Origin: Planctomycetota bacterium
GTDB lineage: Bacteria; Planctomycetota; PLA2; JAEUHO01
Assembly (NCBI GenBank): GCA_965222115.1
Contig: CBDCTJ010000007.1
Coordinates: 2,656,001 to 2,720,000 of the forward strand
Reading direction: 5' to 3'
Length of the DNA stretch: 64,000 bases
Positions 9,737-31,598 of this stretch are shown here, one piece after another. A program made the position numbers and the translations under genes. Within the stretch, counting starts at the first letter, position 1. The number at the start of each line of letters is the position of its first letter. A model generated the notes under the pieces. That model was not told the origin of the DNA, ran no database searches, and saw only the letters and a list, made by a program, of their open reading frames with translations.

Positions 9737-11224
9737 ATGGTTGATCTCTCACCCATCTCCCCGGCCATTGTGCTCACCATCGGCTTGCTGGCGGTGATCA
9801 TTGCCGATCTCGTTACGCGCGGCAAGCGCCCCACGATACCGATCGCGATAGCCATTATTTCGCTGGCCGTGAGCGTGGTGCTTGCTTGGACGCTCAAGGA
9901 CCAAGACAAGACCGTGCTCGGTGTCTTGCGCGCCGATCGATTCGGCAATGTGTTTACGCTTATCTGTTGCATTACCGGATTGATTACGGTCATTGCCACC
10001 ACCCGCGGTGAAGCGTTCCGTACACCGGGCGGTGAGTATCTCACCTTGATCCTGGCCGCAGTCATCGGTATGTCGCTGCTATCGATGTCGGTGGATCTGC
10101 TCACGCTTTATTTGGCGTTTGAAACCGTTTCGATTCCCAGCTACGTCCTGGTGGGCATGCGCCGGGCCGACGTGCGTGCCAACGAAGCGAGTCTCAAGTA
10201 TGTACTTTTTGGGGCCGTGTCATCGGGCGTGATGCTCTATGGCCTGTCCATGTTTGTGGGACTCGCCGGAACCACAACGCTCGACGGGCTGTCCGTAGCC
10301 ATCCAAAACGGCGCGGCTTCGCAACCCATCTTCTGGGTGGCGAGCTTGATGGTGTTGGCTGGATTCGCGTTCAAGATCTCAGCCGTACCGTTTCACTTTT
10401 GGGCACCGGATGTTTACGGGGGCGCCCCGGCAGCCGTTGGCGGCTTTTTGGCCGTTGCAAGTAAGGCGGCGGGCTTTGCGGCGCTCGTTCGCGTCGTGGC
10501 GGCAACCTTACCCAATGTGCTTCCAGCGGAAAACCCCATCACGGCGTTCTTGCCGGATGGCAATTTCCTCATGAAAGCCATCGCGGTTTGCGCAATTCTC
10601 ACAATGACGTTTGGCAACTTGGCAGCGCTCAAGCAGCGTGAAATCAAGCGACTCTTGGCGTGGTCGAGCATTGCCCACGCGGGCTACATCTTGCTGGCGA
10701 TATCCGTGTGGGGCAAAGACGCGATTGCGGGCCTTGTGCTCTATCTCGTCGCCTACTTGTTGATGAATCTCGCGGCGTTTTTCGTGGCGGGTATCGCCAT
10801 TCGGGAAACGGGGACCGGCAAAATTTCGGCGTTCCGTGGCCTCGCCAAGCGCAATGTGTGGCTCGCCGCCTCACTCACGCTCTGCCTGTTTAGCCTCACG
10901 GGACTGCCGCCCTTCTTTGGTTTCATCGGCAAGTTGCAGATCTTTACGGCCATCTTTGAAAAGGGCTACGCGTGGCTCGGCGTCATCGGCCTCGTCAATG
11001 GCGTCATTTCGCTTTACTACTATGCCAAAGTTGCCATGGCCATGTGGCCGTTCGATAGCGATGAGACGTCGCCCCAGCACGCGCCCATACGCCTGTCCTT
11101 GGTTGATGGCGTGTTGTGTGCCGTATTGGCGCTGCCGTTGCTTGGCTTCTTTGTGTGGTGGGGGCCCCTCTGGGAGTGGGCGCAGACCGTCGTGCCCACC
11201 CTCGCGGGAGGGATGCCGTCATGA
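9737..11224 (+). CDS. nuoN: NADH-quinone oxidoreductase subunit N
   Basis: EASLKY, FKISAVPFHFWAPDVYGGAP and KRLLAWSSIAHAGY motifs. Confidence 0.96.
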   Translation: MVDLSPISPAIVLTIGLLAVIIADLVTRGKRPTIPIAIAIISLAVSVVLAWTLKDQDKTVLGVLRADRFGNVFTLICCITGLITVIATTRGEAFRTPGGEYLTLILAAVIGMSLLSMSVDLLTLYLAFETVSIPSYVLVGMRRADVRANEASLKYVLFGAVSSGVMLYGLSMFVGLAGTTTLDGLSVAIQNGAASQPIFWVASLMVLAGFAFKISAVPFHFWAPDVYGGAPAAVGGFLAVASKAAGFAALVRVVAATLPNVLPAENPITAFLPDGNFLMKAIAVCAILTMTFGNLAALKQREIKRLLAWSSIAHAGYILLAISVWGKDAIAGLVLYLVAYLLMNLAAFFVAGIAIRETGTGKISAFRGLAKRNVWLAASLTLCLFSLTGLPPFFGFIGKLQIFTAIFEKGYAWLGVIGLVNGVISLYYYAKVAMAMWPFDSDETSPQHAPIRLSLVDGVLCAVLALPLLGFFVWWGPLWEWAQTVVPTLAGGMPS

Positions 11225-12495
11225 CCGACACGCTACCTGGACTCTCGCCCGAATTGCGGCGTCGCCTCAACACCCTCTTCTCGCGTTCGTATTACAGCGC
11301 GGCGGGGTACGTATTCGAGTCGCAACCCTATCTCGTTGATACCGACCTCCCGGTCATGAACCGTCTTGCCGACGTGCGCGAGGATGATCGCCAACATGCA
11401 CTGTTGCTTGCCGGCCTCACCGAAATGTACGACCTCGTGCCTGAACCTGGCGCGTTTCCCTATTGGCACCGTGATCTCAATTACCTGACGGCTCCCTATA
11501 TGGCGGGCTTCGTAGTCGAGTCACTGGAAGACGATATTGCGCTCTACAAGGAAACGATTAGCGCGTTTCCGGAGGAAATGCGCGTTGCCCACACGGCTCT
11601 GCGTACGATTCTTCGAGAGAAGGAGACGACGCTCGGCGAGTTGCGAGCCGTCGCTGCCAATGCGAAAGCGCGCGAAGCAGAGACGTATGCGGAGAAGATC
11701 GTTGCCGTCAAGAAGGCGCGCGCCGATCGGTTGGCGGCGGAAAAAGCCGCCAAAGCTGCCGCGCGCAAGAAGAAGTCTGCCAAACCTGTCAAGGTCACCC
11801 TCGACTACGATCCCACGGAAGGCATGCCCGATCCTCACGAAGCGGGCATTTCCATGGAAGAGAATGCGCGACGAAAGATTGCGCGCCTGAAAGCTGTCAA
11901 AGAAGCCATGGCGAAGGCAGCCGCTGGTGTCGGCGCAGCATCCAGCGGACCGGTGTATGTGGATCTCAGCAAGTATCCCGATCCCGCCGAACCGGGCATC
12001 TCCATGGAGGAGAACGCCAAGCGCAAGATCGCGCGCTTGAAGGCACTCAAAGATGCGGGGCCCGGCGCCATTGCAGGGAAACCGCCTGCCGGTGTGACCG
12101 CGGCTGCAGGCGGCGACGACAACTTCGGTCTGCCCGATCCCAATGAAAAGGGCATCAGTCCTAAGGAACGAGCCAAGCGCACCATGATGATCAAACGTGC
12201 GCGCAAAAAGGCCGAAGCGGAAGGCGGAGCCGCCTCACCCACAAGCGATCCGGCCGCAGGCATGCCCGACCCCAACGAGCCTGGCATCTCGTCGAAAGAG
12301 AAAGCCAAGCGCACCATGATGATCAAACGTGCGCAAAAGAAGGCCGAAGCAGCAGGTGGTGCGGGCGCCGCCGCACCTGCGAGTGATCCCGCCGCCGGAA
12401 TGCCGGATCCCGATGAACCGGGTATCTCGCCGAAGGAGAAGGCGAAGCGCACGATGATGATTAAGCGGGCACGGAAGAAGGCGGAAGAGGGGTAG
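11221..12495 (+). CDS. Hypothetical protein: putative ferritin-like N-terminal helical domain plus five C-terminal PDPxExGIS-basic-helix repeats
   Basis: Start overlaps the nuoN stop (ATGA); EDDRQH helix resembles a ferritin-like ExxH; five ~30-aa repeats visible. The fold assignment is inference. Confidence 0.75.
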   Translation: MTDTLPGLSPELRRRLNTLFSRSYYSAAGYVFESQPYLVDTDLPVMNRLADVREDDRQHALLLAGLTEMYDLVPEPGAFPYWHRDLNYLTAPYMAGFVVESLEDDIALYKETISAFPEEMRVAHTALRTILREKETTLGELRAVAANAKAREAETYAEKIVAVKKARADRLAAEKAAKAAARKKKSAKPVKVTLDYDPTEGMPDPHEAGISMEENARRKIARLKAVKEAMAKAAAGVGAASSGPVYVDLSKYPDPAEPGISMEENAKRKIARLKALKDAGPGAIAGKPPAGVTAAAGGDDNFGLPDPNEKGISPKERAKRTMMIKRARKKAEAEGGAASPTSDPAAGMPDPNEPGISSKEKAKRTMMIKRAQKKAEAAGGAGAAAPASDPAAGMPDPDEPGISPKEKAKRTMMIKRARKKAEEG

Positions 12496-12542
12496 GGGAT
12501 TCGATCATGGGCTCATGCGCGGCGACGCCATTCGCTCGTTTC

Positions 12543-12716
12543 CCCGTCACCCGAAACCCGAACTCAAGTGTGAGCGTCCGGTGATCGATTCGCGCCAGTT
12601 CGTGGACGTCAAGAGCAAATGGCTTTGCCATTTGCGCGAAGACCGTGAGTAAGCACCAGCAGATCTCTGATCCGCGCAGTGCGCATCGATCGGTGGACGT
12701 GGACGTACAAGTGGAC
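12543..12716 (+). repeat. Structured repeat module R, copy 1 (full; 1 internal GTGGAC)
   Basis: CCCGTCA CCCGAAA ladder, CTCAAGTGTGAGCGTCC, GATCGATTCGCGCC, GCAAATGGC-TTT-GCCATTTGC hairpin, GAGTAAGCACCAGC, GATCTCTGATCCGCGCAGTGCGCATCGA..GTGGACG. Confidence 0.9.
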
Positions 12717-12736
12717 AAAAGCGTGTATCGGAGAAG

Positions 12737-12782
12737 GACCCCAACGGGGTCACGTGTAATAGCCTGGGGTTTTAACCCCAGG
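12737..12782. repeat. REP-like double palindrome
   Basis: GACCCC-AAC-GGGGTC (12737-12751) and CCTGGGGTT-TT-AACCCCAGG (12763-12782). Confidence 0.6.
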
Positions 12783-12878
12783 TATAGTCGTCTCTTCTCT
12801 TTAGCGTTCTGTAGGGACGCCGCCCGACTGCATGCAAGTCCGAGTGAGCTCCTGCGATTTCTAATCTGCGCAGAACGC

Positions 12879-13041
12879 ACCGAACTGCTTGCTGTATGAC
12901 TTGAAAGTGCACGGGGCAACACCCTTTGGGAAGTGCTACGTGCATGCCCCACTCGCCACGAGGGCGAGGGCACGCACTCGCATTCCCGCGGGTGTTTCCT
13001 CGTGGAGCTTCTCGTATGTCATACAGCAAACAGTTCTCGGT
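12879..13041 (+). promoter_or_regulatory. Long leader hairpin (type A) overlapping the start of the four-helix-bundle gene
   Basis: 12882-12900 pairs with 13018-13036 (18/19); nested stems CACGGGGCAACACCC/GGGTGTTTCCTCGTG, GTGCATGCCC/GGGCACGCAC and CTCGCC/GGCGAG. Confidence 0.8.
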
Positions 13042-13402
13042 TACTTCCACGGCGGGTCGGCTTGAACGATTCGATGTGTATCGAATCGCACGTCGTGTCG
13101 CGGCCAGTATTCACCAGCTCTGTGGATCGCTGCCTCGAGGCAACGCCGAGCTTGCAAGCCAAGCTCGACGAGCCTCTACAGCCGTCGTCCTCAACATCGC
13201 GGAGGGTATCGGCCGCGCTGGCGCGGGCGCCAAACACCGCTCGTTCTCAATTGCTCGCGGTGAGTGCGTCGAGGCCGCCGCGGCACTCGACCTCATGCAG
13301 GCGATGGGCATTATCACAGGAGCCAGCGCCGCACCGACGCTTCATGATCTAGATCGCGTCCGCGCGATGCTGAATGCGCTGATCCGCCGCTGGCGGGAGT
13401 GA
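13016..13402 (+). CDS. Four-helix-bundle protein (bAvd / 23S rRNA IVP-like family), subfamily A copy 1
   Basis: 128 aa; RFDVY...LASQARRASTAVVLNIAEGIGR...FSIARGECVE matches the family signature; GGAG upstream of the ATG. Confidence 0.9.
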   Translation: MSYSKQFSVTSTAGRLERFDVYRIARRVAASIHQLCGSLPRGNAELASQARRASTAVVLNIAEGIGRAGAGAKHRSFSIARGECVEAAAALDLMQAMGIITGASAAPTLHDLDRVRAMLNALIRRWRE

Positions 13403-13468
13403 GGCACGCCCATTCGCAGCGAACCTCGCAAAAAGTGCCGGGTGTAATTTTGCACCGGTTAGCGCACT

Positions 13469-13845
13469 CCCGCCACCCGTCACCCGTTCCCCGAAACCCG
13501 TCACCCGGACTCAAGTGTGAGCGTCCGATAATCGATTCGTGTCGCGTTCAAAACGTGGACGTGGACGTGGACGTGGACGTGGACGTGGACGTGGACGTGG
13601 ACGTGGACGTGGACGTGGACGTGGACGTGGACGTGGACGTGGACGTGGACGTGGACGTGGACGTGGACGTGGACGTGGACGTGGACGTGGACGTGGACGT
13701 GGACGTGGACGTGGACGTGGACGTGGACGTGGACGTGGACGTGGACGTGGACGTCGAGAGCAGATGGGCGAAGCCCGTTTGCACGAGACCCTGAGCAAGC
13801 ACCAGAGGATCTGTGATCCGCGCGGTGCGCATCGAAGGGTGGACG
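13469..13845 (+). repeat. Module R copy 2 (full) containing (GTGGAC)33 at 13555-13752
   Basis: Five-heptamer ladder, CTCAAGTGTGAGCGTCC, perfect 198-bp hexamer array, GATGGGC-GAA-GCCCGTT hairpin, conserved 3' tail. Confidence 0.95.
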
Positions 13846-13858
13846 CCCTCGATGCCTA

Positions 13859-14551
13859 TCACGCACGGCGTGGCGGGCCGTCGAGGATGTCGGCGTGTGG
13901 CGCGTCTCTTATTGTCTTTCGTTCCGCTCCGCGTTCGCGGAGATGAAGAGTCAGGTCGACTACGATCTTCGCGATGACGAGAACAGCCAGGATGCCGATG
14001 GTGCTGTTGAAGAGCAAGACAACAAAGTTACCTAAAATAATGGCGAACTGCATGATAAAGATTCGCGTGTACGCCGCGGCCATGGGATCGAAGGATGCGT
14101 CCGCTGCCTGGACAACGTTCTTCTTAAAGTTCAAGGCATACGAAATGCCGTGGCTAACAAACATCGCGCCTATCACCAGAAGCCAGTGCGGTTCCAGTCT
14201 ACCAAGTGTATCGATCGTGTAGTTGAAGAACGAGTGGGACTTGGGTCGCGAAATCAGGATGCTGTTTGACCATGAAGGTCTCGTCAGTATCCACAGGAAC
14301 AATGCGTGTCCCACCATAAACCCACCGAAGTGCAGCGTGAAGAAGGACACGTCAAAGAACGCATTCCTTTTCCTCTTGAGTGAGAACAACTTCAGAATGG
14401 AGTAGAATCCGATGACGGCAGATTCGGCCCAGTATAGATAGAGCACCATGGCGAGGTCCCACCCCCCTGCCAGCACGCCGTAGAGTGGAATCAAGTTGAC
14501 GGCAATCAGTGTGAAGATTGCGAGTGGATGGGAGCGTGCAAATTGCGTCAT
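13859..14551 (-). CDS. Membrane protein, DUF6498-like
   Basis: NLIPLYGVLAGGW...LYWAESAVIG, FFTLHFGGF..GH and YTRIFIMQ pattern; multiple TM helices. Confidence 0.75.
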   Translation of the reverse strand: MTQFARSHPLAIFTLIAVNLIPLYGVLAGGWDLAMVLYLYWAESAVIGFYSILKLFSLKRKRNAFFDVSFFTLHFGGFMVGHALFLWILTRPSWSNSILISRPKSHSFFNYTIDTLGRLEPHWLLVIGAMFVSHGISYALNFKKNVVQAADASFDPMAAAYTRIFIMQFAIILGNFVVLLFNSTIGILAVLVIAKIVVDLTLHLRERGAERKTIRDAPHADILDGPPRRA

Positions 14552-14713
14552 GATCGCGAGACTCCTGAATCGGGAATGCATGTCAAGCGCAGTTCGAGTA
14601 TCGGGGGCATCGCATGGCGCAAAATTTCAGTTTCAGCATCCGAGGCGAATTTCTAGCCCCCTGCGGTGCGCTTCGGAAGGGACTCCGGTACGTGATTCGG
14701 TAAGCTCTCGACC

Positions 14714-15709
14714 ATGGCCAGCAGTTTCGGAAGCGTGTTCTGTTCGACGTATGCCCTCGCTACATTCGAGAGCGGGGGCTGGAGTCCATGGACGCTTGCG
14801 CCTGTGGCACCCATCTCGATTCATCCGGGGGCGCACGGGCTGCACTACGGAAGCAGTTGTTTCGAAGGGCTCAAGGCGTATCGCCGCGACGACGGACGAG
14901 TACACATCTTTCGCCTTGACCGGCATGTTGAACGCATGCAGGCGAGCGCAGAGGCTTTGCGGCTGCCCGTTCCCGATGCCTCGCAATTTCACGACATGAT
15001 CTATGCGTTGGTTGATCGGTGCCGCGATGAGGTTCCGGTCTATCCAGGCGCCCTCTACATTCGACCGATTCTCTTTGGCACGTTGGAGTCGGTTGGCGCG
15101 GCCGGATCCGCGAGCGACGAAGCGCAACTCGTTGTTTTGGTGTGTCCCGTGGGAGACTACTTTGAGGGCGGTATGCGACCGCTTCGTATAGCCACTGTCA
15201 CCGATCGTGCACGCGCCGCACCTGGATTCGGTTGCGTAAAGACGGGTTCGAACTATGCCGCGGCGCTGCGCCCTGTCCTCACCGCGAAGCGAGACCATGA
15301 CGCCGATCAAGTGTTGTTTTGTCCAGATGGCAACGTTCAGGAGACAGGCGCCGCCAACTTCATCGTGATTCACAACAAGACGGTGATTACCAAACCACTG
15401 GACGACACGATCTTGCACGGCGTCACCCGCGACTCCCTGCTGACGATTGCACCTTCACTTGGCTTCAATGTAGAAGAACGCGAGTTCTCCGTGGATGAGC
15501 TACTTACGTGGGCGCCGAACGCAGAAGCAGGTTTGTCCGGTACCGCGGCCGTACTTGCGCCGGTTGGCGTGCTCATTCACGAGGGCAAAGAGCACGTGGT
15601 GGGTGATGGGAGCATTGGTCCGAACGTCAGAAAGCTGCGTGAAGCATTGACCGCGATTCAATCCGGCGATGCCGAAGATGAGTACGGGTGGTTGCTGTCC
15701 GTGACGTAA
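14714..15709 (+). CDS. ilvE: Branched-chain amino acid aminotransferase (PLP class IV)
   Basis: LHYGSSCFEGLKAYR, LYIRP, KTGSNY, ETGAAN and ILHGVTRDS motifs. Confidence 0.93.
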   Translation: MASSFGSVFCSTYALATFESGGWSPWTLAPVAPISIHPGAHGLHYGSSCFEGLKAYRRDDGRVHIFRLDRHVERMQASAEALRLPVPDASQFHDMIYALVDRCRDEVPVYPGALYIRPILFGTLESVGAAGSASDEAQLVVLVCPVGDYFEGGMRPLRIATVTDRARAAPGFGCVKTGSNYAAALRPVLTAKRDHDADQVLFCPDGNVQETGAANFIVIHNKTVITKPLDDTILHGVTRDSLLTIAPSLGFNVEEREFSVDELLTWAPNAEAGLSGTAAVLAPVGVLIHEGKEHVVGDGSIGPNVRKLREALTAIQSGDAEDEYGWLLSVT

Positions 15710-15752
15710 CGCATGCATGTGCTACTCGACATATGTCCCGCGCTCATCGTTT

Positions 15753-15834
15753 CCCTTTTCCCGTTTCCCGTCACCCGGAATCCAGATTTGTGCCGGGTGC
15801 ATTTTCGCGCGCGGTGTGCATCGAAGGGTAGACG
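15753..15834 (+). repeat. Module R copy 3 (partial: heptamers plus 3' tail)
   Basis: CCCGTTT CCCGTCA CCCGGAA ... GCGCGGTGTGCATCGAAGGGTAGACG. Confidence 0.75.
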
Positions 15835-15835
15835 C

Positions 15836-16210
15836 TCATGGAACGTTGAATCGCCGCTGGAGGACGAACAACATCGCGGCGGTTCGCTCCAGCGTGTTCA
15901 TGACTCGCGAAACTTTGAGTTCACTCGAGAGACGGAGTAGGAGCGCGTGATGTAGAGCCGCGATGGCTTCGGTGCATTCGGCGTGTGCAATGTCGTAGGC
16001 CCTGCGCTTCTCGGCTGCCCGCCGTTTCGATAGGCCTTCGGCGACGTTTAGGGCAACGCTGGTGCTTGCGCGCCTGAGTTGATCGGCAAGTTTTGCGTTG
16101 CCTCGTGGCCACTCGGCGCAGATGGCGACGCACTCGACTGCCGCGGCCTGCGAAGCACGGTAGACGTCGAAGCGTTTGAGGTACTCGAGCGTTGAAGACG
16201 CGCTTGTCAT
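15836..16210 (-). CDS. Four-helix-bundle protein, subfamily B copy 1
   Basis: 124 aa; RFDVY...LADQLRRASTSVALNVAEG...YDIAHAECTE; GGAG SD 7 nt upstream. Confidence 0.9.
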   Translation of the reverse strand: MTSASSTLEYLKRFDVYRASQAAAVECVAICAEWPRGNAKLADQLRRASTSVALNVAEGLSKRRAAEKRRAYDIAHAECTEAIAALHHALLLRLSSELKVSRVMNTLERTAAMLFVLQRRFNVP

Positions 16211-16366
16211 GATGGAACTCCAGTTGAAGGGAACGCAAGCCGTTTGCTCGCGTGTGCCCTTCGCAAAAGAGCCGAAGGCGAAGGAGGGCACACGCGAGCG
16301 GGTCGTACAAACAGAGCCCGCGTGACAGCGACAACTCGTTCCCAAACTGGAGTTCCATCACAAGCG
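16201..16366 (-). promoter_or_regulatory. Long leader hairpin (type B) sequestering the SD and start codon
   Basis: 16201-16225 pairs with 16345-16366 with a 3-nt bulge at the start codon; inner stems GGGAACG/CGTTCCC and GCTCGCGTGTGCCCT/AGGGCACACGCGAGC. Confidence 0.82.
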
Positions 16367-16417
16367 GCGCCTGCGCGTACCGAACGCGCTATGGCAACCG
16401 GCGGTGCTGTCCAAGGC

Positions 16418-16657
16418 CCAGTCACCCTTCACCCGTTACCCGTTACCCGTAAACCGAATCCCAGACTCAAGGGTGAGCGTCGGATGGACGATTCGCGCCG
16501 TCTTTACGTGGACGTGGACGTGGACGTGGACGTGGACGTGGACGTGGACGTGGACGTGGACGTGGACGTGGACGTGGACGTGGACGTGGACGTGGACGTG
16601 GACGTGGACGTGGACGTGGACGTGGACGTGGACGTGGACGTGGACGTGGACGTGGAA
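16418..16657 (+). repeat. Module R copy 4 (5' half) with (GTGGAC)24 at 16508-16651
   Basis: Heptamer ladder, CTCAAGGGTGAGCGTCGG, GATTCGCGCC, perfect 144-bp array. Confidence 0.95.
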
Positions 16658-16673
16658 TCAGATTGGGTGCATC

Positions 16674-17474
16674 TTAGTCGTCGTCTTTCTTGGGTACGTC
16701 TTTCTCAATCCACGACGTAATCATGTACCGCACTTCGACCCATGAAAGCGTGATTGTGTACTCGCGCGTTAGATGCTCATAGGTTACGAGGTACTTTGCT
16801 TGTAGGGAGTCGTTTTCACCGGGCCCAAACGATGTGCGCATGAGATTCTTGAACGCGCCTTGTTTTCCATCGACGAGATCGATCTTGGTTGGCAGTGACT
16901 CACGCTCAATCATATCGCCCGATACGAACTTCGAGATGGTTTGAGGATTGCCTTGCGCGACCTGCTCAACGGCGCCGCGCATGGCGTCCTGTTCGAGCAG
17001 TTTCCGCTGTTCATCGCGGGCAGTGATTACGTGCTCAGCCTGTGCGGCGCGAGGGGTTAACGTGTAACGTGCGATTAGCCAGCGGCCGCCTGTGGCTGGA
17101 TTTCGCCTAAGATGAAACGTGGAATCAAGGATGACGTGTTCGCAACTCAGCGTAGCAAGTACCGTCTTTCGCGCCTTGCCTCCTGTTTCCGACACCTCCT
17201 CGATTCGAATGTCGTTTACCGCTCTCACGTTTCCGAATTGGGCTTGATACTGTTTCCGCTGTTCGCCGAATGCATGGGGGTGCCAATACACAAGAAGGGG
17301 CTTAGCGACATGTGGAAGTGTTTCGATGGAGTCATGCACCGCGTTGGACAACAGCGCCTTTGCGAATTCGGTAACGATGACCTCATGGGCGTCCTTCGTG
17401 GTTAGCGAGCTGATGGCGGCGAATAGCACACACGCCAACAACGTAAGCCCAAGCGCCTTGAATACGGGACCCAC
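16674..17474 (-). CDS. Hypothetical exported or membrane-anchored protein
   Basis: 266-aa ORF with an N-terminal hydrophobic helix; directly downstream of the dehydrogenase gene. Confidence 0.7.
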   Translation of the reverse strand: MGPVFKALGLTLLACVLFAAISSLTTKDAHEVIVTEFAKALLSNAVHDSIETLPHVAKPLLVYWHPHAFGEQRKQYQAQFGNVRAVNDIRIEEVSETGGKARKTVLATLSCEHVILDSTFHLRRNPATGGRWLIARYTLTPRAAQAEHVITARDEQRKLLEQDAMRGAVEQVAQGNPQTISKFVSGDMIERESLPTKIDLVDGKQGAFKNLMRTSFGPGENDSLQAKYLVTYEHLTREYTITLSWVEVRYMITSWIEKDVPKKDDD

Positions 17475-17485
17475 GGCGCGGCCTC

Positions 17486-18517
17486 CTACGAAGATGCCTT
17501 CGGCTGCTTCTTCACTTCTTCAACGATCGCGCGCGTGATGTCATCGGTGGTGCCATTCCCGCCTAGGTCAGGCGTCAATGCTTCCTTGCGATGGCTCGTT
17601 ACGGCGGCGACACCACGGCGAATGCGATGGTACGCATCTACATCACCCAAGTGATGACACATCATGGCAGCACTGAGAATCATTGCGATTGGATTGGCGA
17701 CACCTTTGCCCGCAATGTCTGGGGCGGTGCCGTGGATCGCCTCAAACACGGCGCACTCTGCCCCGTAGTTTCCGCCCGGAGCCAAACCGAGGCCGCCAAT
17801 CAGGCCGGCCGCCAGGTCGCTCACAATGTCCCCGTATAGATTTTCAAGAAGAAGAACGTCGTAACGGCCGGGATTGGTCACTAGGTGCATGCACAACGCG
17901 TCAACGAGGACATCGGTAAACTCGACGGTGCCCCTAAACGGTTCCGATGATTCTTCTGCACAGCGCAAGAACAGGCCATCCGCCTTCTTCATGATGTTTG
18001 CCTTGTGAACGGCAGTGACCTTCTTACGCTCCCAGCGCTTGGCGTAGGAAAACGCGAACTCGGCGATGCGACGACTGGCGCGATCTGTAATAACCTTTAG
18101 TGAGGTGACGACGCCCGGTGCAACCTCGTTCTCCATGCCGGCATAAAGGTCTTCCGTGTTCTCACGAACGATGACCAAATCGACGGGACCGTGCGACGTC
18201 TCGAGACCGGGAACCGTTTTCACCGGACGAACATTGGCGAACAGTTCGAGCGCTTTCCGCAGTCGAACGTTGGCAGATACGTGGCCACCGCCACTTGGCG
18301 TGGTCGTGGGTCCCTTGAGCGCTACCCCAATGTCCCGAACGAGATCCACCGTCTTTGTAGGCATGGCGTCGCCGTGCTTCTCAAGGGCGCACAGGCCGAG
18401 ATCAGCCTCGATCCAGTCAAAGTTCATCTCAGCAGCATCAAGCACGCGACGCGCTGATGCAGCCACCTCCGGGCCGATACCGTCGCCGGGTAGATAGACA
18501 ACACGTGTACCGCTCAT
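17486..18517 (-). CDS. Isocitrate/isopropylmalate dehydrogenase family protein (NAD-dependent IDH-like)
   Basis: PGDGIGPEV, IVRENTEDLY, VHKANIMK, NLYGDIVSDL and FEAIHGTAPDIAGKG motifs. Confidence 0.92.
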   Translation of the reverse strand: MSGTRVVYLPGDGIGPEVAASARRVLDAAEMNFDWIEADLGLCALEKHGDAMPTKTVDLVRDIGVALKGPTTTPSGGGHVSANVRLRKALELFANVRPVKTVPGLETSHGPVDLVIVRENTEDLYAGMENEVAPGVVTSLKVITDRASRRIAEFAFSYAKRWERKKVTAVHKANIMKKADGLFLRCAEESSEPFRGTVEFTDVLVDALCMHLVTNPGRYDVLLLENLYGDIVSDLAAGLIGGLGLAPGGNYGAECAVFEAIHGTAPDIAGKGVANPIAMILSAAMMCHHLGDVDAYHRIRRGVAAVTSHRKEALTPDLGGNGTTDDITRAIVEEVKKQPKASS

Positions 18518-18655
18518 GCGGGGTATCCTCCGAACACACCGCGTGGGGCGCGCGAAAAAAGGCTTTGTGAACGACGCAAAGTATCGAGCATTTCGCGGCG
18601 CGTAGCGAATTGTCCAGGCGCCCAATGCGCCCATTTCTGATGGAGACCGCCGATC

Positions 18656-20524
18656 ATGGAGCGCCGGCCCGGAGCTTTCCGACGCGTGCTGTCGGCGTTG
18701 CTGGGACAGGTCGTTCCCGCGTCACTCGGTCTCGTCGCTGGCTCGTTGGCACTAACCTTCGTCCCACTCAACAACCACGGCATTGGCGCCTGCATTGCGA
18801 CGTTTCTGCTGGTTTGGTTCTCCGCTGCCTGGGGCCTTGCACGCGTCCGCGAAAACAAACAATGGCGGCGTCTCTACCGTCTCGCCGTTTTCGGCCACGT
18901 ACTGTTTTGGTCCTACGTAGGCATCGCTGGATCTTCACTTCGTGCGCCCGGCGTGCCCCAAGTGCGACCCGGGACGCACGATGGCGCTGACATGGGTCAG
19001 ATTCGCGCGGGCGTCGGTGAAGCGGCGTTTGTCATTCCCAGGGATGTGACGCTTGGTGGTTGGGGTATGCGACCCCGTCGCTATCGTGTTCCCGCCTTTG
19101 GAGGTATAGGGATTCTGGGGCGCCTAAGTCAAGACTTCATGGCCGGGACGGGTGGCGACGGCATGCCGCGCAAGCCGCTCTTCTTTTCGGCCGCGAAAGA
19201 GGATGCGCCCCAGACGTTGGAACGCGTTGGCGCGCGCGCCATTTCGATTTCGTGTGGAGACGGCGTGCCAATGACGTGGGTGCGTCTAGATTTGGTCACG
19301 GTGTCGCCGGGACTCGTTGCAGACATTCTCACACGCGTCAAGAAGTCTCACCCGCGTGTGACGCCTGATCGTCTTGTGGTGGCCGCATCACATACGCACA
19401 GTTGTATGGCCGGGTATAGCGAGCAACGCCTCTCCGCGCTTGCGGGTACGGACCATCTTCGTTCAGACGTTCGAAAGGCAGTCGCCGACGCGGCTCTTCA
19501 GGCCATTTCTATCGCCTGGTCAACCCGCTCGGCTGCTCAGCTAGCACCGTTTATGACGCATGATCGTTTGGCAGATGGACGTAGCGCGCTTGCCCGCAAT
19601 CGGCGTAAGAAGAATGACACCGACATTGACGATCGCGTCTTTGGGATACGTGTCGACTCGCAGGCTAGGGAGACGATTGCGATTCTGCTGAACTACGCCG
19701 TTCATCCAACGGTCCTAAAACGACATACATGTTCCCTTCACCGAGACTTGGTGGGGTCCGTAGAGGAGGCGGTTAGTAAGACGATTCCCAGTCGACCGAT
19801 GACACTCTTCTTGAATGGCGCGCAGGGCGATATTGGACCTGCACGCATCGAGGGGTATTCGGATGAGTTTCGTGCCGACGCGCTTGCCGAACGATTTGCC
19901 CGCGTCCTAAAGGACACGGTCACTTCCGCGGCGCCATACACCCATGGACGTATGCACACCGCGTTTGCAACGTGCGATCCAGGGTCCCCCTTTGCGATTG
20001 TTGCTGGTGAAGACCGCGCGGGTTGGGCGGAGCGATTTCGGTCGGGATACGTCGAGGGATCCACGAGTCAGTCGATCTGTGACGTGCTTTCGTATCCTGG
20101 CAACGCGCTTCTTTGGAGTATTGGGCTATCTGAAGCGCGCGTTGCATTCGATTTTGGTGGAGGCGGTGCAACGATGGTCTCACTGGATCCATCGATGGAA
20201 CAAACCGAGCTGCAGGTCGGCGCGTGGATACTTGAGCTGGGTGATTCGACCAATGTGAGGTTTCGTACAGTAGGTGTGTGGCAGCCCGGCGAAGCAACAC
20301 AGGCGCTGGGCAAGTCATGGCGCGCCATGGCCGCGTCACGTGGCTACGACCATTGCATGATTGCCGGACTGGCTGGGGGTGCGTGTGCCTACTTGACCAC
20401 GCCAGAAGAGTATGACGCCGGGGGCTACGAGGCACTTGCCACCCTCTATGGCCCCCGCGGCGGCGAGTTGATCGGTGCGGCGTTTGAGGGTGCGTTGGAT
20501 GCGTGTGATCCGAAGGGTGAATAG
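18656..20524 (+). CDS. Neutral/alkaline ceramidase-like hydrolase with N-terminal TM helices
   Basis: ASHTHS, NYAVHPT, FLNGAQGD and YLTTPEEYDAGGYE motifs; three N-terminal hydrophobic segments. Confidence 0.8.
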   Translation: MERRPGAFRRVLSALLGQVVPASLGLVAGSLALTFVPLNNHGIGACIATFLLVWFSAAWGLARVRENKQWRRLYRLAVFGHVLFWSYVGIAGSSLRAPGVPQVRPGTHDGADMGQIRAGVGEAAFVIPRDVTLGGWGMRPRRYRVPAFGGIGILGRLSQDFMAGTGGDGMPRKPLFFSAAKEDAPQTLERVGARAISISCGDGVPMTWVRLDLVTVSPGLVADILTRVKKSHPRVTPDRLVVAASHTHSCMAGYSEQRLSALAGTDHLRSDVRKAVADAALQAISIAWSTRSAAQLAPFMTHDRLADGRSALARNRRKKNDTDIDDRVFGIRVDSQARETIAILLNYAVHPTVLKRHTCSLHRDLVGSVEEAVSKTIPSRPMTLFLNGAQGDIGPARIEGYSDEFRADALAERFARVLKDTVTSAAPYTHGRMHTAFATCDPGSPFAIVAGEDRAGWAERFRSGYVEGSTSQSICDVLSYPGNALLWSIGLSEARVAFDFGGGGATMVSLDPSMEQTELQVGAWILELGDSTNVRFRTVGVWQPGEATQALGKSWRAMAASRGYDHCMIAGLAGGACAYLTTPEEYDAGGYEALATLYGPRGGELIGAAFEGALDACDPKGE

Positions 20525-20593
20525 GTGGCGGGAAGGAAGTAGATCCTGCGAAACAGGCCGGATGGAGTCTGAAGGATTCGTGCGTATTTCCTT

Positions 20594-20764
20594 ACCGTTA
20601 CCCGAAACCCGAAACCCGGGCTCAAGTGTGAGCGCTCAATGATCGATTCACGCCGGGTCGTCGAGAGTGAATGGCTTTGCCATTTGCACGAAGACCCTGA
20701 GTAAGCACCAGCGGATCTCTGATCCGCGCAGTGCGCATCAAAGGGTGCGCATCGAAGGGTGGAC
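20594..20764 (+). repeat. Module R copy 5 (full; no internal GTGGAC)
   Basis: CCCGAAA ladder, CTCAAGTGTGAGC, ATGGC-TTT-GCCAT hairpin, GCGGATC-TCT-GATCCGC, duplicated GTGCGCATC.AAGGG tail. Confidence 0.9.
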
Positions 20765-20807
20765 CTCAAGTAGCGTAATAGTCGTATGCGTTCGGTACCG
20801 ATGGACC

Positions 20808-20965
20808 ACCGAACTGTTTGCTGTGTGACGTGAACGCGCACTGGGCAACACCCTTTGAGAAGTGCTACGTGCATGCCCCATTCGCCATGAGGGCGAGGGC
20901 ACGCACTCGCATTCCCGCGGGTGTTTCCTCGTGGAGTTTCTCGTATGTCACACAGCAAACAGTTC
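20808..20965 (+). promoter_or_regulatory. Long leader hairpin (type A), second copy
   Basis: 20811-20829 is the perfect reverse complement of 20947-20965; same nested stems as 12879-13041. Confidence 0.82.
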
Positions 20966-21331
20966 TCGATTACTTCCACGGCAGGTCGGCTTGAACGTTT
21001 CGACGTGTATCGAATCGCACGCCGTGCCGCGGCCAGCATTCACCAGCTTTGTGGATCCCTGCCGCGAGGCAACGCCGAGCTTGCAAGCCAAGCTCGACGA
21101 GCCTCTACAGCCGTCGTCCTCAACATCGCCGAGGGCATCGGGCGCGCTGGCGCAGGCGCCAAGCACCGTTCGTTCTCCATCGCTCGCGGCGAGTGCGTCG
21201 AGGCCACCGCGGCACTCGACCTCATGCACGCGATGGGAATCCTTACAGGCGCCCACGCCGCGCCAACGCTTCGCGACCTTGACCGCGTTCGCGCAATGTT
21301 GAACGCGCTCATCCGGCGCTGGAGGGAATGA
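20945..21331 (+). CDS. Four-helix-bundle protein, subfamily A copy 2
   Basis: 128 aa; 8 substitutions relative to 13016-13402 by eye. Confidence 0.9.
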   Translation: MSHSKQFSITSTAGRLERFDVYRIARRAAASIHQLCGSLPRGNAELASQARRASTAVVLNIAEGIGRAGAGAKHRSFSIARGECVEATAALDLMHAMGILTGAHAAPTLRDLDRVRAMLNALIRRWRE

Positions 21332-21339
21332 GGGGGTGT

Positions 21340-21572
21340 CCCGTTACCCGAGACCCGTTACCCGGACTCAAGTGTGAGCCTCTGATGATCGATTCGCGCC
21401 GTTCGTGGACGTGGACGTGGACGTGGACGTGGACGTGGACGTGGACGTGGACGTGGACGTGGACGTGGACGTGGACGTGGACGTGGACGTGGACGTGGAC
21501 GTGGACGTGGACGAAACCCTGAGTAAGCACCAACGGATCTCTGATCCGCGCGGTGCGCACCGAACGGTGGAC
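21340..21572 (+). repeat. Module R copy 6 with (GTGGAC)18 at 21405-21512
   Basis: Heptamer ladder, CTCAAGTGTGAGC, perfect 108-bp array, CCCTGAGTAAGCACC...GTGGAC tail; first 3' hairpin deleted. Confidence 0.95.
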
Positions 21573-24467: not shown

Positions 24468-24842
24468 TCAGGGACCGCCGAATTTGTGTTGAAGCACGAA
24501 CAACATGGCGGCGGCGCGTTCTAGGGTGTTCATCGCCTGCGACGTTGCGCGCTCGCTTGCGATTCCAAGCAGCTGGGCGTGATGCAGCGCAGCGATCGCT
24601 TCGGTGCACTCGGCGTGGGCGATGTCGTATGCCTTGCGCTTCTCGGCGGGGCGGCGCTTCGCCAGCCCCTCTGCGACGTTGAGTGCAACGCTGGTACTAG
24701 CGCGCCGGAGTTGATCGGCGAGTTTTGCGTGGCCTCGAGGCCATGTTGCGCAGAGCGCGACGCACTCGACTGCTGCTGCCTGCGAAGCACGGTAGACATC
24801 GAAGCGTTTGAGGTAATGGAGCGTGGAAGACGCGCTTGTCAT
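24468..24842 (-). CDS. Four-helix-bundle protein, subfamily B copy 2
   Basis: 124 aa; LADQLRRASTSVALNVAEG; antisense to the flanking carA and purA. Confidence 0.9.
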   Translation of the reverse strand: MTSASSTLHYLKRFDVYRASQAAAVECVALCATWPRGHAKLADQLRRASTSVALNVAEGLAKRRPAEKRKAYDIAHAECTEAIAALHHAQLLGIASERATSQAMNTLERAAAMLFVLQHKFGGP

Positions 24843-25000
24843 GATGGAACTCCAGCGTGAAGGGAACGCAAGCCGTTTGCTCGCGTGTGCCCTTCACAAA
24901 AGAGCCGAAGGCGAAGGAGGGCACACGCGAGCGGGTCGTACAAAAAGTCCCCTCGTGACAGCGACAACTCGTTCTCAAGCTGGAGTTCCATCACAAGCGC
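24832..25000 (-). promoter_or_regulatory. Long leader hairpin (type B), second copy
   Basis: GCGCTTGT-cat-GATGGAACTCCAGC pairs with GCTGGAGTTCCATC-ACAAGCGC. Confidence 0.82.
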
Positions 25001-25041
25001 AGCCCGCGCGTAACGGTCGCGCATGCCTTGCCCGCGGCCCG

Positions 25042-25220
25042 CCCGGAATCCGTCACCCGTATCCCGTCATCCGGACTCAAATGTGGACATCCGATGATCG
25101 ATTCACGCCGGTTCGTGGACGTGGACGTGGAGAGCAGATGGGCGAAGCCCATTTGCGCGAAGACCCTGAGTAAGCACCAGCGGATCTCTGATCCGCGCAG
25201 TGCGCATCGAAGGGTGGACG
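25042..25220 (+). repeat. Module R copy 8 (full; (GTGGAC)2)
   Basis: Heptamers, GGACTCAAATGTG, GATGATCGATTCACGCC, GCAGATGGGC-GAA-GCCCATTTGC, conserved tail. Confidence 0.92.
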
Positions 25221-30645: not shown

Positions 30646-30759
30646 CCCGTATGCCGTTACCCGTTACCCGAGACCCGATACCCGATACCCGATACCCGAT
30701 ACCCGGTCTCAAGTGTGAGCATCCGATGATCGATTCGAGGCACGTTTAAGACGTGGACG
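30646..30759 (+). repeat. Module R copy 10 (5' half; 1 GTGGAC)
   Basis: Eight heptamers including (CCCGATA)4, CTCAAGTGTGAGCATCCGATGATCGATTCG, ends in GTGGACG. Confidence 0.9.
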
Positions 30760-30760
30760 A

Positions 30761-31135
30761 TCACGGTTCGTCGAATCGGCGCTGAAGTACGAACAACATG
30801 GCGGCGGATCGCTCCAAGCTGTTCATGACGAGTGAGATTGCGGCTTCGCTGGCGAGACCAAGCAATAGCGCGTGGTGTAGAGCGGCAATGGCCTCGGTGC
30901 ATTCGGCGTGTGCGATGTCGTAGGCCCTGCGCTTTTCGGCTGGCCGCCGTTTCGATAGGCCTTCAGCGACGTTTAGCGCAACGCTGGTACTTGCGCGCCT
31001 GAGTTGATCGGCGAGCTTTGCGTGGCCGCGAGGCCATGCGGCGCAGATTGCGACGCACTCGATCGCCGCGGCTTGCGAAGTACGGTAGACATCGAAGCGT
31101 TTGAGGTACTCGAGCGTAGAAGAGGCGCTTGTCAT
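30761..31135 (-). CDS. Four-helix-bundle protein, subfamily B copy 3
   Basis: 124 aa; same signature as the other B copies. Confidence 0.9.
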   Translation of the reverse strand: MTSASSTLEYLKRFDVYRTSQAAAIECVAICAAWPRGHAKLADQLRRASTSVALNVAEGLSKRRPAEKRRAYDIAHAECTEAIAALHHALLLGLASEAAISLVMNSLERSAAMLFVLQRRFDEP

Positions 31136-31291
31136 GATGGAACTCCAGATGAAGGGAACGCAAGCAGTTTGCTCGCGTGTGCCCTTCGCAAAAAAGCCGA
31201 AGGCGAAGGAGGGCACACGCGAGCGGGTCGTACAAAAAGAACCCGCGTGAAAACGACAACTCGTTCCCAAGCTGGAGTTCCATCACAAGCG
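31126..31291 (-). promoter_or_regulatory. Long leader hairpin (type B), third copy
   Basis: CGCTTGT-cat-GATGGAACTCCAG pairs with CTGGAGTTCCATC-ACAAGCG; inner stem conserved. Confidence 0.82.
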
Positions 31292-31342
31292 GCGCCCGCG
31301 CGTACCGTTTGCGCTGGAGCTACCGGCGGTGCTGTCCAAAGT

Positions 31343-31598
31343 CCCGTCACCCGTTACCCGTCACCCGTTACCCGTCACCCGTTCCCCGTGACCCGTACTC
31401 AAGGGCGGGCATCCGATGAACGATTTGCGCCGTCTTAACGTGGACGTGGACGTGGACGTGGACGTGGACGTGGACGTGGACGTGGACGTGGACGTGGACG
31501 TGGACGTGGACGTGGACGTGGACGTGGACGTGGACGTGGACGTGGACGTGGACGTGGACGTGGACGTGGACGTGGACGTGGACGTGGACGTGGACGTG
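31343..31598 (+). repeat. Module R copy 11 (5' half) with (GTGGAC)26 at 31440-31595
   Basis: Seven CCCGT(C/T)A-type heptamers, CTCAAGGGCGGGCATCCGATGAACGATTTGCGCC, perfect 156-bp array. Confidence 0.95.

Follow-up and report, generated by a model that had tools for sequence, protein, structure and literature searches.

Proteins of the PF05635/TIGR02436 family, to which both the 23S rRNA intervening sequence (IVS) protein and the DGR protein Avd belong, are common and often multi-copy, and are best known from the selfish IVS. Avd binds RNA; apart from DGR Avd, we know of no function for members of this family. Upstream sequence that sequesters a ribosome-binding site is familiar from insertion sequences: IS10 combines fold-back inhibition with the antisense RNA-OUT, and IS200 carries a 5′ stem-loop occluding its Shine-Dalgarno (SD) sequence. 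In autoregulatory translational operators, including the MS2 coat-protein hairpin at the replicase start and ribosomal-protein leaders, a protein stabilises a weak hairpin. The attC site of integrons is an imperfect hairpin at the 3′ end of a cassette ORF, with R″ (RYYYAAC) and R′ (GTTRRRY) boxes.

The IVSs of Coxiella and Leptospira containing an S23p/PF05635 ORF are regarded as selfish, and their stem is described as an RNase III substrate (PMC4990558). The same source mentions heptamers (GACAGAT) upstream of the ORF start in the Coxiella IVS and reports that its ORF is decaying (PMC4990558). Here we describe repeated PF05635 genes with long leader hairpins in an uncultured planctomycete, in a stretch of 64 kb of DNA analysed as a whole (hereafter, the window).

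Leader hairpins and their genes

Two genes of type A, A1 (13016..13402, + strand) and A2 (20945..21331, + strand), encode proteins of 128 aa sharing 94% amino acid identity. The A1 product, a four-helix-bundle protein with a pI of about 11, matches PF05635 (E 2e-19), TIGR02436 (E 2.8e-20) and the PDB entry 2gsc (E 2.3e-6), a sequence relative with five chains; A2 matches PF05635 with a Pfam E of 4.8e-19. Family membership follows from PF05635 scores of 70.2 and 69.0 bits (cut-off 33.8) and a TIGR02436 score of 72.6 bits (cut-off 24). Genes of type B, encoding PF05635 proteins about 40–43% identical to type A, lie on the opposite strand at 15836..16210 (124 aa), 24468–24842 and 30761–31135 (the last also with a Pfam match). 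The genome contains 8 type A and 10 type B copies, all 18 dispersed over a 570-kb stretch of one contig. Divergence among the type A copies at codon positions 1/2/3 is 0.06/0.03/0.33, a pattern indicating that these genes are functional.

A composite repeat follows A1 (13469..13754, + strand), made of a heptamer array (CCCGTCA-like), a core of ~40 nt and a perfect hexamer array of 33.7 units. Similar heptamer-core-hexamer blocks bracket every four-helix-bundle gene; we regard them as context of the hairpin-gene units and not as an established part of the leader.

Both type A genes are preceded by a rod-like hairpin of ~160 nt, located at 12879..13045 for A1 (+ strand; inverted repeat I3; MFE −93.1 kcal/mol, z −8.31) and 20808..20974 for A2 (+ strand; inverted repeat I2; MFE −85.4 kcal/mol, z −6.86). 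None of 200 shuffles folded as stably in either case. An earlier reading made from the letters of the window, without searches (the sequence-only reading), had proposed this hairpin, and folding of both copies bore it out with every coordinate correct. The basal stem pairs upstream sequence with the ATG and codons 2–7 through arms of 19 nt: 12882–12900/13018–13036 in A1 (95% complementary, with a single mismatch C12888.A13030) and 20811–20829/20947–20965 in A2 (100% complementary). Given the start codons at 13016–13018 and 20945–20947, the 3′ arm extends from the G of the ATG through the end of codon 7. The GGAG motif assigned as SD from the sequence and the predicted fold (13004..13007, + strand, in A1; 20933–20936 in A2) lies 8 nt 5′ of the ATG, at the junction between an internal loop and the next stem. 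Basal stems form near-perfect duplexes of 19–21 bp, and the whole rod comprises ~60 pairs over 160 nt. The hairpin is kept in 8/8 type A copies of the genome, among which homology runs from the hairpin base to the stop codon.

An inverted-repeat scan of the whole window returned 10 pairs, the top five of which are exactly the five PF05635 leaders, with the two type A arm pairs in second and third place. The remaining three leaders precede the type B genes, all on the − strand: 16199..16370 (I5; MFE −121.2 kcal/mol for 241 nt, z −7.34), 24831..25003 (I4; opening energy 23.6 kcal/mol) and 31124..31296 (I1; opening energy 21.8 kcal/mol). According to a consensus fold of 10 copies, the type B leader repeats the type A architecture in an unrelated sequence; in 16199..16370, the SD (CUGGAG) and the flanks of the AUG are paired, and codons 2–4 pair with an upstream CGCUUGU.

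This architecture recurs, built from unrelated sequences, in type B and also in paralogues from four or five further genomes of the order. In the "type 2" leaders of genome G031, upstream sequence pairs with codons 2–5 and the SD. In leaders of G008, G019, G021, G025 and G031, the SD lies in the outer stem and the core of the hairpin covaries (15 pairs, 4 of them changed on both sides, with 19 such cells). A model of this latter leader found 34 distinct sites in 5/40 genomes of the order, and coordinate matching placed at least 29 of the 34 directly upstream of a PF05635 frame. The family itself is present in 149/301 sampled planctomycete genomes, and 22 canonical PF05635 genes from other planctomycete families possess no leader structure (mean z −0.34), so the hairpin has been added in this lineage and is not something that the protein family requires. 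Searches against Rfam 15 at gathering scores gave no match in the whole window, and the hairpins matched no family either window-wide or by E-value over 12400–16800. Rfam scans of 18 relatives' loci yielded nothing except RNase P RNA and a tRNA.

Selection on the pairing and on the first codons

The hairpin structure exists, is specific to these genes, and its pairing is under purifying selection; this pairing constrains the first codons and has reshaped them. The sequence-only reading had drawn attention to a compensatory change, A12896:T13022 in A1 versus G20825:C20951 in A2, which is indeed the same pair and exchanges Tyr3 for His3. Taken alone, one such A:T/G:C pair would be weak evidence for selection. 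Across the eight type A copies, however, codons 1–8 vary only in codon 3 (C/T) and codon 5 (A/T), and each variant is matched by a change in the 5′ arm and alters the residue (His3Tyr and Lys5Asn, respectively). Codon 3 is CAC (His) in 7/8 genomic copies and TAC (Tyr) only in A1; pair 20/148 is G:C in seven copies and A:U in one, while pair 11/156 is A:U in three, U:A in two and mismatched in three. With both variable sites compensated and both residue-changing, the proposal that structure is selected over amino acid identity is supported. The cost of changed first residues to the protein is small, because the Pfam domain begins at residue 18 and residues 1–17 lie outside it.

Rate comparisons extend this picture to silent positions. 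Third positions of type A are invariant in 6/7 of codons 2–8 versus 33/119 elsewhere (Fisher p 0.0035). Type A copies show a pairwise divergence of 0.35 across 62 four-fold sites, compared with 0.064 for the non-coding hairpin and about 0.49 for the 50 nt preceding it. Within the leader, divergence amounts to 0.041 in paired versus 0.167 in unpaired columns, and 14/99 paired versus 13/38 unpaired columns are variable (p 0.01); paired non-coding columns thus evolve ~8 times slower than four-fold sites. In type B, pairing ends at codon 4 and sequence variation resumes at codon 4, and its 10 copies provide three further compensated pairs. Six single A.C breaks are tolerated among the type A copies.

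In a covariation test, of the kind suggested together with the sequence-only reading, covariation for type A alone is weak and not significant (2/60 pairs compensated, a count reached by 46/500 shuffles; the covariation score itself was reached by 9/500). In the relatives' leader core the score was reached by 0/500 shuffles.

The locus is a clean natural case in which pairing, of RNA or of DNA, takes precedence over synonymous as well as non-synonymous choice where a gene begins, and in two paralogue types the constraint reaches as far as the stem does. A leader structure that is under demonstrable selection and dictates the first codons is a concrete handle on the PF05635/TIGR02436 family.

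Possible roles of the hairpin

As possible roles, the sequence-only reading had raised a translational switch, perhaps autoregulated, and a folded substrate of the element. On balance, we lean towards the hairpin being an mRNA leader that blocks translation initiation of the PF05635 gene. Opening energies, computed for positions −14 to +6, predict that the hairpin occludes the ribosome site: opening would cost 17.2–29.5 kcal/mol in the five leaders, compared to 8.0 ± 2.0 (maximum 12.6) in 22 control genes, and 2.9–11.0 kcal/mol in the five leaders without their 5′ arm. The hairpin would form the 5′ mRNA leader of a small basic four-helix-bundle protein, with its 5′ arm folding back onto the SD region, the start codon and codons 2–7. 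Whenever both arms are present in one transcript, a rod of about −90 kcal/mol would sequester the ribosome-binding site and block initiation, and expression would require that the 5′ arm be removed or opened. It is not obvious how a rod of −90 kcal/mol could open; both the activity of the sense RNA and the route by which the hairpin opens are inferred. RNase III may cut the long duplex, with subsequent loss of the 5′ arm; transcription may start inside the hairpin, in which case only read-through transcripts would be silenced; or the basic protein may itself bind the hairpin, creating feedback. An RNA thermometer, a weak SD-occluding hairpin melting within the physiological temperature range, does not fit −85 to −93 kcal/mol at 37 °C and ~60 pairs.

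We consider it unlikely that the palindrome instead gives rise to a stable antisense hairpin RNA directed against the mRNA 5′ end, to which it would pair like RNA-OUT of IS10, with the sense mRNA starting inside the palindrome and read-through fold-back as a second or side effect. The palindrome does cover exactly the SD, start and first codons, and the antisense strand folds as well as the sense strand or slightly better (by ~3–5 kcal/mol) in 16/18 leaders of this genome (G000) and as well or better in 17/23 relatives. Two of the eight type A copies also lack a conserved promoter-like sequence upstream of the hairpin. However, a sigma-70 consensus scan of 12400–13600, a consensus that planctomycete promoters may not fit, returned no promoter-like site on either strand. 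A strand-neutral count of wobble-compatible positions gives 21 sense versus 14 antisense for type A and 23 versus 16 for type B, so that A.C does not outnumber sense G.U in this genome; in the relatives, sense A.C mismatches (equal to antisense G.U) exceed sense G.U pairs, 78 versus 30, an excess that may stem from the A/C-rich coding flanks included in the compared segments. Thermodynamics and wobble counts do not separate a sense RNA from an antisense RNA or DNA. Strand-neutral folding would equally suit a hairpin acting as DNA, a single-strand fold or cruciform for a trans-acting recombinase or transposase that moves, or once moved, the hairpin-plus-gene unit. We see this as likewise unlikely, although homology between copies starts at the hairpin base and stops at the stop codon, the 18 copies are dispersed within their 570 kb and each is bracketed by composite repeats, and PF05635 genes are known as passengers of selfish 23S rRNA IVSs (PMC4990558). 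The copies are old (four-fold divergence about 0.35) and each is under purifying selection, unlike recently transposed elements; no transposase or integrase gene lies beside the units within the window. Nothing about a DNA substrate would call for overlap with the SD and the start codon, yet such overlap is seen in at least three unrelated leader sequences. Compared by eye with the consensus, the basal arms do not resemble attC R″/R′ boxes: 5′ ACCGAAC has one mismatch, and 3′ GTTCTCG does not fit GTTRRRY.

The hairpin could also serve RNA processing or stability, as a site for RNase III or a protective 5′-terminal stem that keeps the message of the small gene apart from read-through of neighbouring operons, with occlusion of the ribosome site incidental; we judge this quite improbable. 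The near-perfect basal duplex would be a plausible RNase III substrate, A1 lies downstream of the nuo operon in the same orientation and no terminator-like site was found in 12400–13600, and RNase III cleaves IVS stems that carry this gene family (PMC4990558). A processing stem, however, need not contain the SD and first codons, a feature that recurs in independent leader types; synonymous constraint tracks the paired codons exactly, and a cut in the basal stem would fall inside the reading frame. An inert palindrome left by duplication would account for there being just 2 compensated pairs in 8 copies along with several uncompensated mismatches. Slow evolution of the paired columns, frozen synonymous sites in the paired codons and recurrence of the architecture with different sequence in type B and other genomes make such a functionless relic extremely improbable, and the rate comparisons already contradict it.

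The translational-leader reading most likely describes the role of the hairpin, namely gating the translation of a repeated small gene in an uncultured planctomycete. The leader would then indicate that expression of the PF05635 gene is tightly gated. It is also a candidate RNA partner for the protein, linking the stand-alone genes to the long IVS stems.

Comparison with known systems

Unlike the attC site of an integron cassette, the planctomycete hairpin precedes its ORF, and the window contains no integrase gene. DGR Avd belongs to the same fold family (PF05635). The genome has 7 RVT_1 matches, of which the closest to A1 lies at a distance of about 36 kb; none adjoins type A or B genes, except for one ~1.4 kb from a type B copy; this one belongs to a multi-copy set typical of introns.

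Similarly to the MS2 and ribosomal-protein operators, the hairpin holds the SD and start of the gene that would be regulated, and the product is small, basic (pI about 11) and probably a nucleic-acid-binding protein. In contrast to those operators, the planctomycete hairpin is extremely stable already without protein.

The 23S rRNA IVS (PMC4990558) shares the protein family, a long stable stem adjoining the ribosome site of the ORF, and short tandem repeats beside it (hexamer and heptamer arrays here, heptamers in Coxiella). The two differ in that the planctomycete stem-loop lies ahead of the ORF, whereas the IVS stem consists of terminal repeats enclosing it, and in that strong purifying selection acts on the planctomycete genes, while the ORF of Coxiella is reported to be decaying. 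Both arms lie at the 5′ end with the ORF outside the loop, and the units do not sit in a 23S rRNA gene, where an IVS occupies helix 25 or 45; no rRNA match exists in the window, where their neighbours are nuo genes and other protein genes. We speculate, while considering it rather unlikely, that the rod is the RNA ligand of a four-helix-bundle pentamer, and that hairpin, gene and hexamer/heptamer arrays make up one self-contained cassette that shares its lineage with the 23S rRNA IVS, in which RNase III processing and protein binding decide whether any protein is made from the read-through of neighbouring operons. If true, this would give stand-alone PF05635 proteins their first defined nucleic-acid target and first testable function.

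IS10 and IS200 resemble the locus in that sequence ahead of a multi-copy, possibly selfish gene base-pairs with its ribosome site, so that transcripts entering from outside would be untranslated. As in IS10, one palindrome could also yield an antisense hairpin RNA; the internal or antisense promoter of IS10 has no counterpart in the sigma-70 consensus scan of 12400–13600, a consensus possibly ill-fitting for planctomycetes. The planctomycete gene is no transposase, and its stem, with about 60 pairs over 160 nt, is far longer. Sequestration of the ribosome site in read-through transcripts, as in IS10, is predicted here as well (17–30 kcal/mol with the 5′ arm versus 3–11 without it).

Four-helix-bundle genes, their leaders and the flanking repeats

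The host genome (4.55 Mb, 59% G+C) possesses 18 genes of the family PF05635 (23S_rRNA_IVP), which divide into 8 type A and 10 type B genes and are all located within one 570-kb stretch (2.27–2.85 Mb) of contig C7, from which the window is taken. Housekeeping genes of the window include the nuo operon, purA and carA; the nearest PurA sequences come from uncultured Planctomycetota MAGs (61–64% amino acid identity). Two type A genes lie in the window, A1 (13016–13402; PF05635 E 2e-19) and A2 (20945–21331; E 4.8e-19). Each encodes a basic protein of 128 aa (pI about 11), which also matches TIGR02436 ("four helix bundle protein") and, weakly, PDB 2gsc; type B proteins are 39–43% identical to those of type A. 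A DNA search of the genome recovered 8 full-length type A units at 86–100% identity, in all of which homology starts at the hairpin base and stops a few bases past the stop codon. PADLOC defence-system models produced no matches.

The hairpin that the sequence-only reading placed before both type A genes is correct and well beyond chance. Across the whole window, its basal stems (12882–12900/13018–13036 in A1; 20811–20829/20947–20965 in A2) rank second and third as local inverted repeats, and the leaders of three minus-strand type B genes fill the remaining places in the top five. The A1 leader folds at −93.1 kcal/mol (z −8.31) and that of A2 at −85.4 kcal/mol (z −6.86), with 0 of 200 shuffles as low in either case. 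Since the genes start at 13016 and 20945, the 3′ arm spans the G of the ATG to codon 7; the GGAG Shine–Dalgarno (SD) sequence borders on the next stem, as had been noticed, and lies 8 nt before the ATG. The difference between A12896:T13022 and G20825:C20951 is likewise real and exchanges TAC for CAC at codon 3. The type B leader is a ~165-nt rod of the same design and of a sequence unlike type A: the SD (CUGGAG) and the AUG flanks are paired, and an upstream heptamer pairs with codons 2–4. No Rfam family matches the hairpin in scans of the window, the hairpin region and the loci of relatives. A sub-threshold match to Acido-Lenti-1 (12737–12782, minus strand; 25 bits against a gathering threshold of 37, E 0.011) sits in an A1-only stretch upstream of the hairpin.

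A composite repeat brackets every four-helix-bundle gene. It consists of a CCCGTCA-like heptamer array (in the window at 13469–13507, 16431–16450, 30654–30705 and 31343–31396), a conserved core of ~40 nt and a perfect hexamer array (13553–13754, 16506–16656, 21404–21513 and 31438–31598; unit ACGTGG/GTGGAC, 18–34 copies, 100% matches). Type A and type B genes have opposite orientations relative to this repeat, and several PF05635 genes form divergent type B/type A pairs with one composite repeat between both leaders, for example 2345232(−)/2346069(+) and 2730875(−)/2731762(+) of C7. The repeat also stands alone: there are 12 cores in the window, and a loose scan allowing 3 mismatches finds about 80 genome-wide, enriched in C7 2.6–2.9 Mb (32 cores). 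Some composite repeats are followed by D7, a 92-nt repeat family with small internal hairpins, whose four copies (12604–12695, 13750–13841, 20656–20747 and 25125–25216) are 64–100% alike. A separate 138-nt tandem repeat (12171–12496; 2.4 copies, 77% matches) occupies the 3′ end of an ORF of 459 aa (11116–12495), for which no Pfam match was found. In other Planctomycetota families, degenerate tandem repeats with a period of 6–9 nt, mostly 7–8, lie just 5′ of the SD in 14 of 28 PF05635 genes (L175–L204), compared with 3 of 112 control windows taken from those loci; this protein family and short tandem arrays upstream of its genes are probably linked in general.

Selection on pairing and on the first codons

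The consensus of the eight type A copies comprises 60 pairs, with 97.5% of cells paired. The alignment stays at this size because no close relatives were found: a metagenome scan returned five loci with partial matches at 33–51% identity, none turned up in genome contigs, and the best non-self match within the same family is 41% identical. Two-sided changes affect 2 pairs only, a count reached by 46 of 500 column shuffles, and the covariation score is reached by 9 of 500. Covariation inside type A alone is thus thin. At the pair singled out by the sequence-only reading, seven copies have G:C and one has A:U. The second compensated pair, 11/156 (12888/13030 in A1), is A:U in three copies, U:A in two and mismatched in three, and with it codon 5 switches from AAA (Lys) to AAT (Asn) or back. 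The hairpin also tolerates six single A·C mismatches.

Rate comparisons are much stronger evidence for selection than this covariation. Pairwise divergence among the type A copies amounts to 0.35 at 62 four-fold sites and to 0.33, 0.06 and 0.03 at third, first and second codon positions, respectively. The non-coding part of the hairpin diverges by 0.064, and the 50 nt that precede the hairpin by about 0.49; within the non-coding hairpin, paired columns diverge by 0.041 and unpaired ones by 0.167, and 14 of 99 paired versus 13 of 38 unpaired columns are variable (p about 0.01). Of the third positions of codons 2–8, 6 of 7 do not vary, compared with 33 of 119 in the remaining gene (p 0.0035), and the two variable sites within codons 1–8 are both the compensated ones. 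Rates in type B follow this pattern: the leader diverges by 0.11 versus 0.34 at third positions and holds three compensated pairs; its stem stops inside codon 4, and synonymous variation starts again at codon 4, a boundary which provides an internal control. That pairing overrides codon choice is supported by the compensated pairs at the His3Tyr site and at Lys5Asn together with the frozen synonymous sites.

Leaders in related genomes

More distant PF05635 genes were matched in 13 of 27 genomes searched within the same order. In five genomes, four of the same family (G008, G019, G021 and G025) and one of another (G031), a shorter hairpin, rich in G+C and with the SD in its outer stem, stands before them. 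An alignment of 23 such leaders contains a 15-pair core with two-sided changes in 4 pairs (19 cells), and its covariation score is reached by 0 of 500 shuffles. One G031 group also pairs upstream sequence with codons 2–5 and so has the design of types A and B in a sequence unrelated to theirs. Several places in G031 have two leaders of the R1 type (modelled below) in tandem before a single PF05635 frame (C29 255–355 and 426–527; C68 698–797 and 902–1002; C39 67625–67727 and 67772–67872). Elsewhere among the relatives, one PF05635 gene adjoins an RNase P RNA gene (L039 3087–3324, minus strand) and another adjoins a tRNA gene (L020 1186–1271, plus strand).

R1, a covariance model of this leader, was run on 40 genomes of the order and matches 34 distinct places in 5 of them; coordinate comparison puts at least 29 of the places immediately before a PF05635 frame, and 2 more are at contig ends. 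The model does not match the type A and type B leaders of the host genome, so that A, B and R1-type leaders represent separate sequence families with a common design; the former two are either analogous to the R1 type or too diverged to match. An 8-mer common to the apical 3′ arm, noticed by eye, is insufficient for homology. The best R1 match in the window is weak (11144–11223, plus strand; 16.9 bits, E 0.03), consists of a small hairpin of high G+C content with GGGAGG and an ATG after it, near the end of nuoN, and is probably due to chance.

Of 38 order-level PF05635 genes listed, 34 could be scored, with a mean z of −2.6. Among 28 PF05635 loci from other planctomycete families, 6 have no callable start, and the 22 canonical genes scored display no leader structure (mean z −0.34; one z of −5.1), which makes the hairpin a lineage-specific addition.

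Predicted translational gating and comparison with known systems

Opening the region from −14 to +6 is predicted to cost 17.2–29.5 kcal/mol in the five leaders of the window, compared with 8.0 ± 2.0 kcal/mol (maximum 12.6) in 22 further genes there that start with ATG, and 2.9–11.0 kcal/mol in the leaders when the transcript begins at −75 and the 5′ arm is absent. Given these high energies, a transcript with both arms should be translationally silent. We hypothesize that the leader hairpin of the mRNA gates translation initiation of the four-helix-bundle gene; built on folding prediction and comparative logic, this is the best-supported reading and a moderately probable one. Candidate ways round a rod of −90 kcal/mol are processing by RNase III, a start within the hairpin and binding of the basic protein.

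Two other readings assign the palindrome a different role. It could give rise to an antisense RNA resembling RNA-OUT, which we consider unlikely. Neither folding energies nor wobble counts separate the strands. Antisense folds are slightly more stable for 16 of 18 leaders of the host genome and for 17 of 23 of the relatives. In strand-neutral counts of wobbles possible on one strand only, type A has 21 in sense and 14 in antisense, and type B 23 and 16; in relatives the count is 30 versus 78, in windows that contain A/C-rich coding flanks. A DNA-level role of the hairpin is equally improbable in our estimation, as a DNA substrate need not cover the SD and first codons, yet this coverage recurs in at least three leader sequences that are unrelated to one another. 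For this reason, we prefer action as sense RNA. A scan for the sigma-70 consensus, which planctomycete promoters may not fit, found no promoter-like or terminator-like sites in 12400–13600; by eye, six of the eight type A copies show a weakly conserved ATAA-like motif 5–10 nt 5′ of the hairpin base. The segment 12000–21900 is contained in four DNA runs of one study, and no RNA run containing it was found.

Identity with DGR Avd genes was rejected because no reverse transcriptase is adjacent. RVT_1 matches in the host genome number seven (C3:81659; C7:262294, 881482, 1004494, 1984989, 2631845 and 3037923). Six of them form two sets, each uniform in score, as is typical of group II introns present in several copies; one match is ~1.4 kb away from the nearest type B gene.

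In the portions of the literature consulted, including parts of PMC4990558, PMC2864571 and bioRxiv 10.64898/2026.10.21.760802, whose supplements may list nearby motifs, we found no description of a leader hairpin of PF05635/TIGR02436 genes. The nearest known biology is the 23S rRNA intervening sequence, which, according to PMC4990558, carries an ORF of the same family and has a long stem cut by RNase III and, in Coxiella, heptamer repeats before the start codon. The present units differ from it in lying outside rRNA and in having a stem that does not enclose the ORF. The closest functional analogues are IS10 fold-back inhibition, the IS200 leader stem and protein-bound translational operators; the element is a new lineage-specific case of a known cis-acting type, on a protein family of unassigned function.
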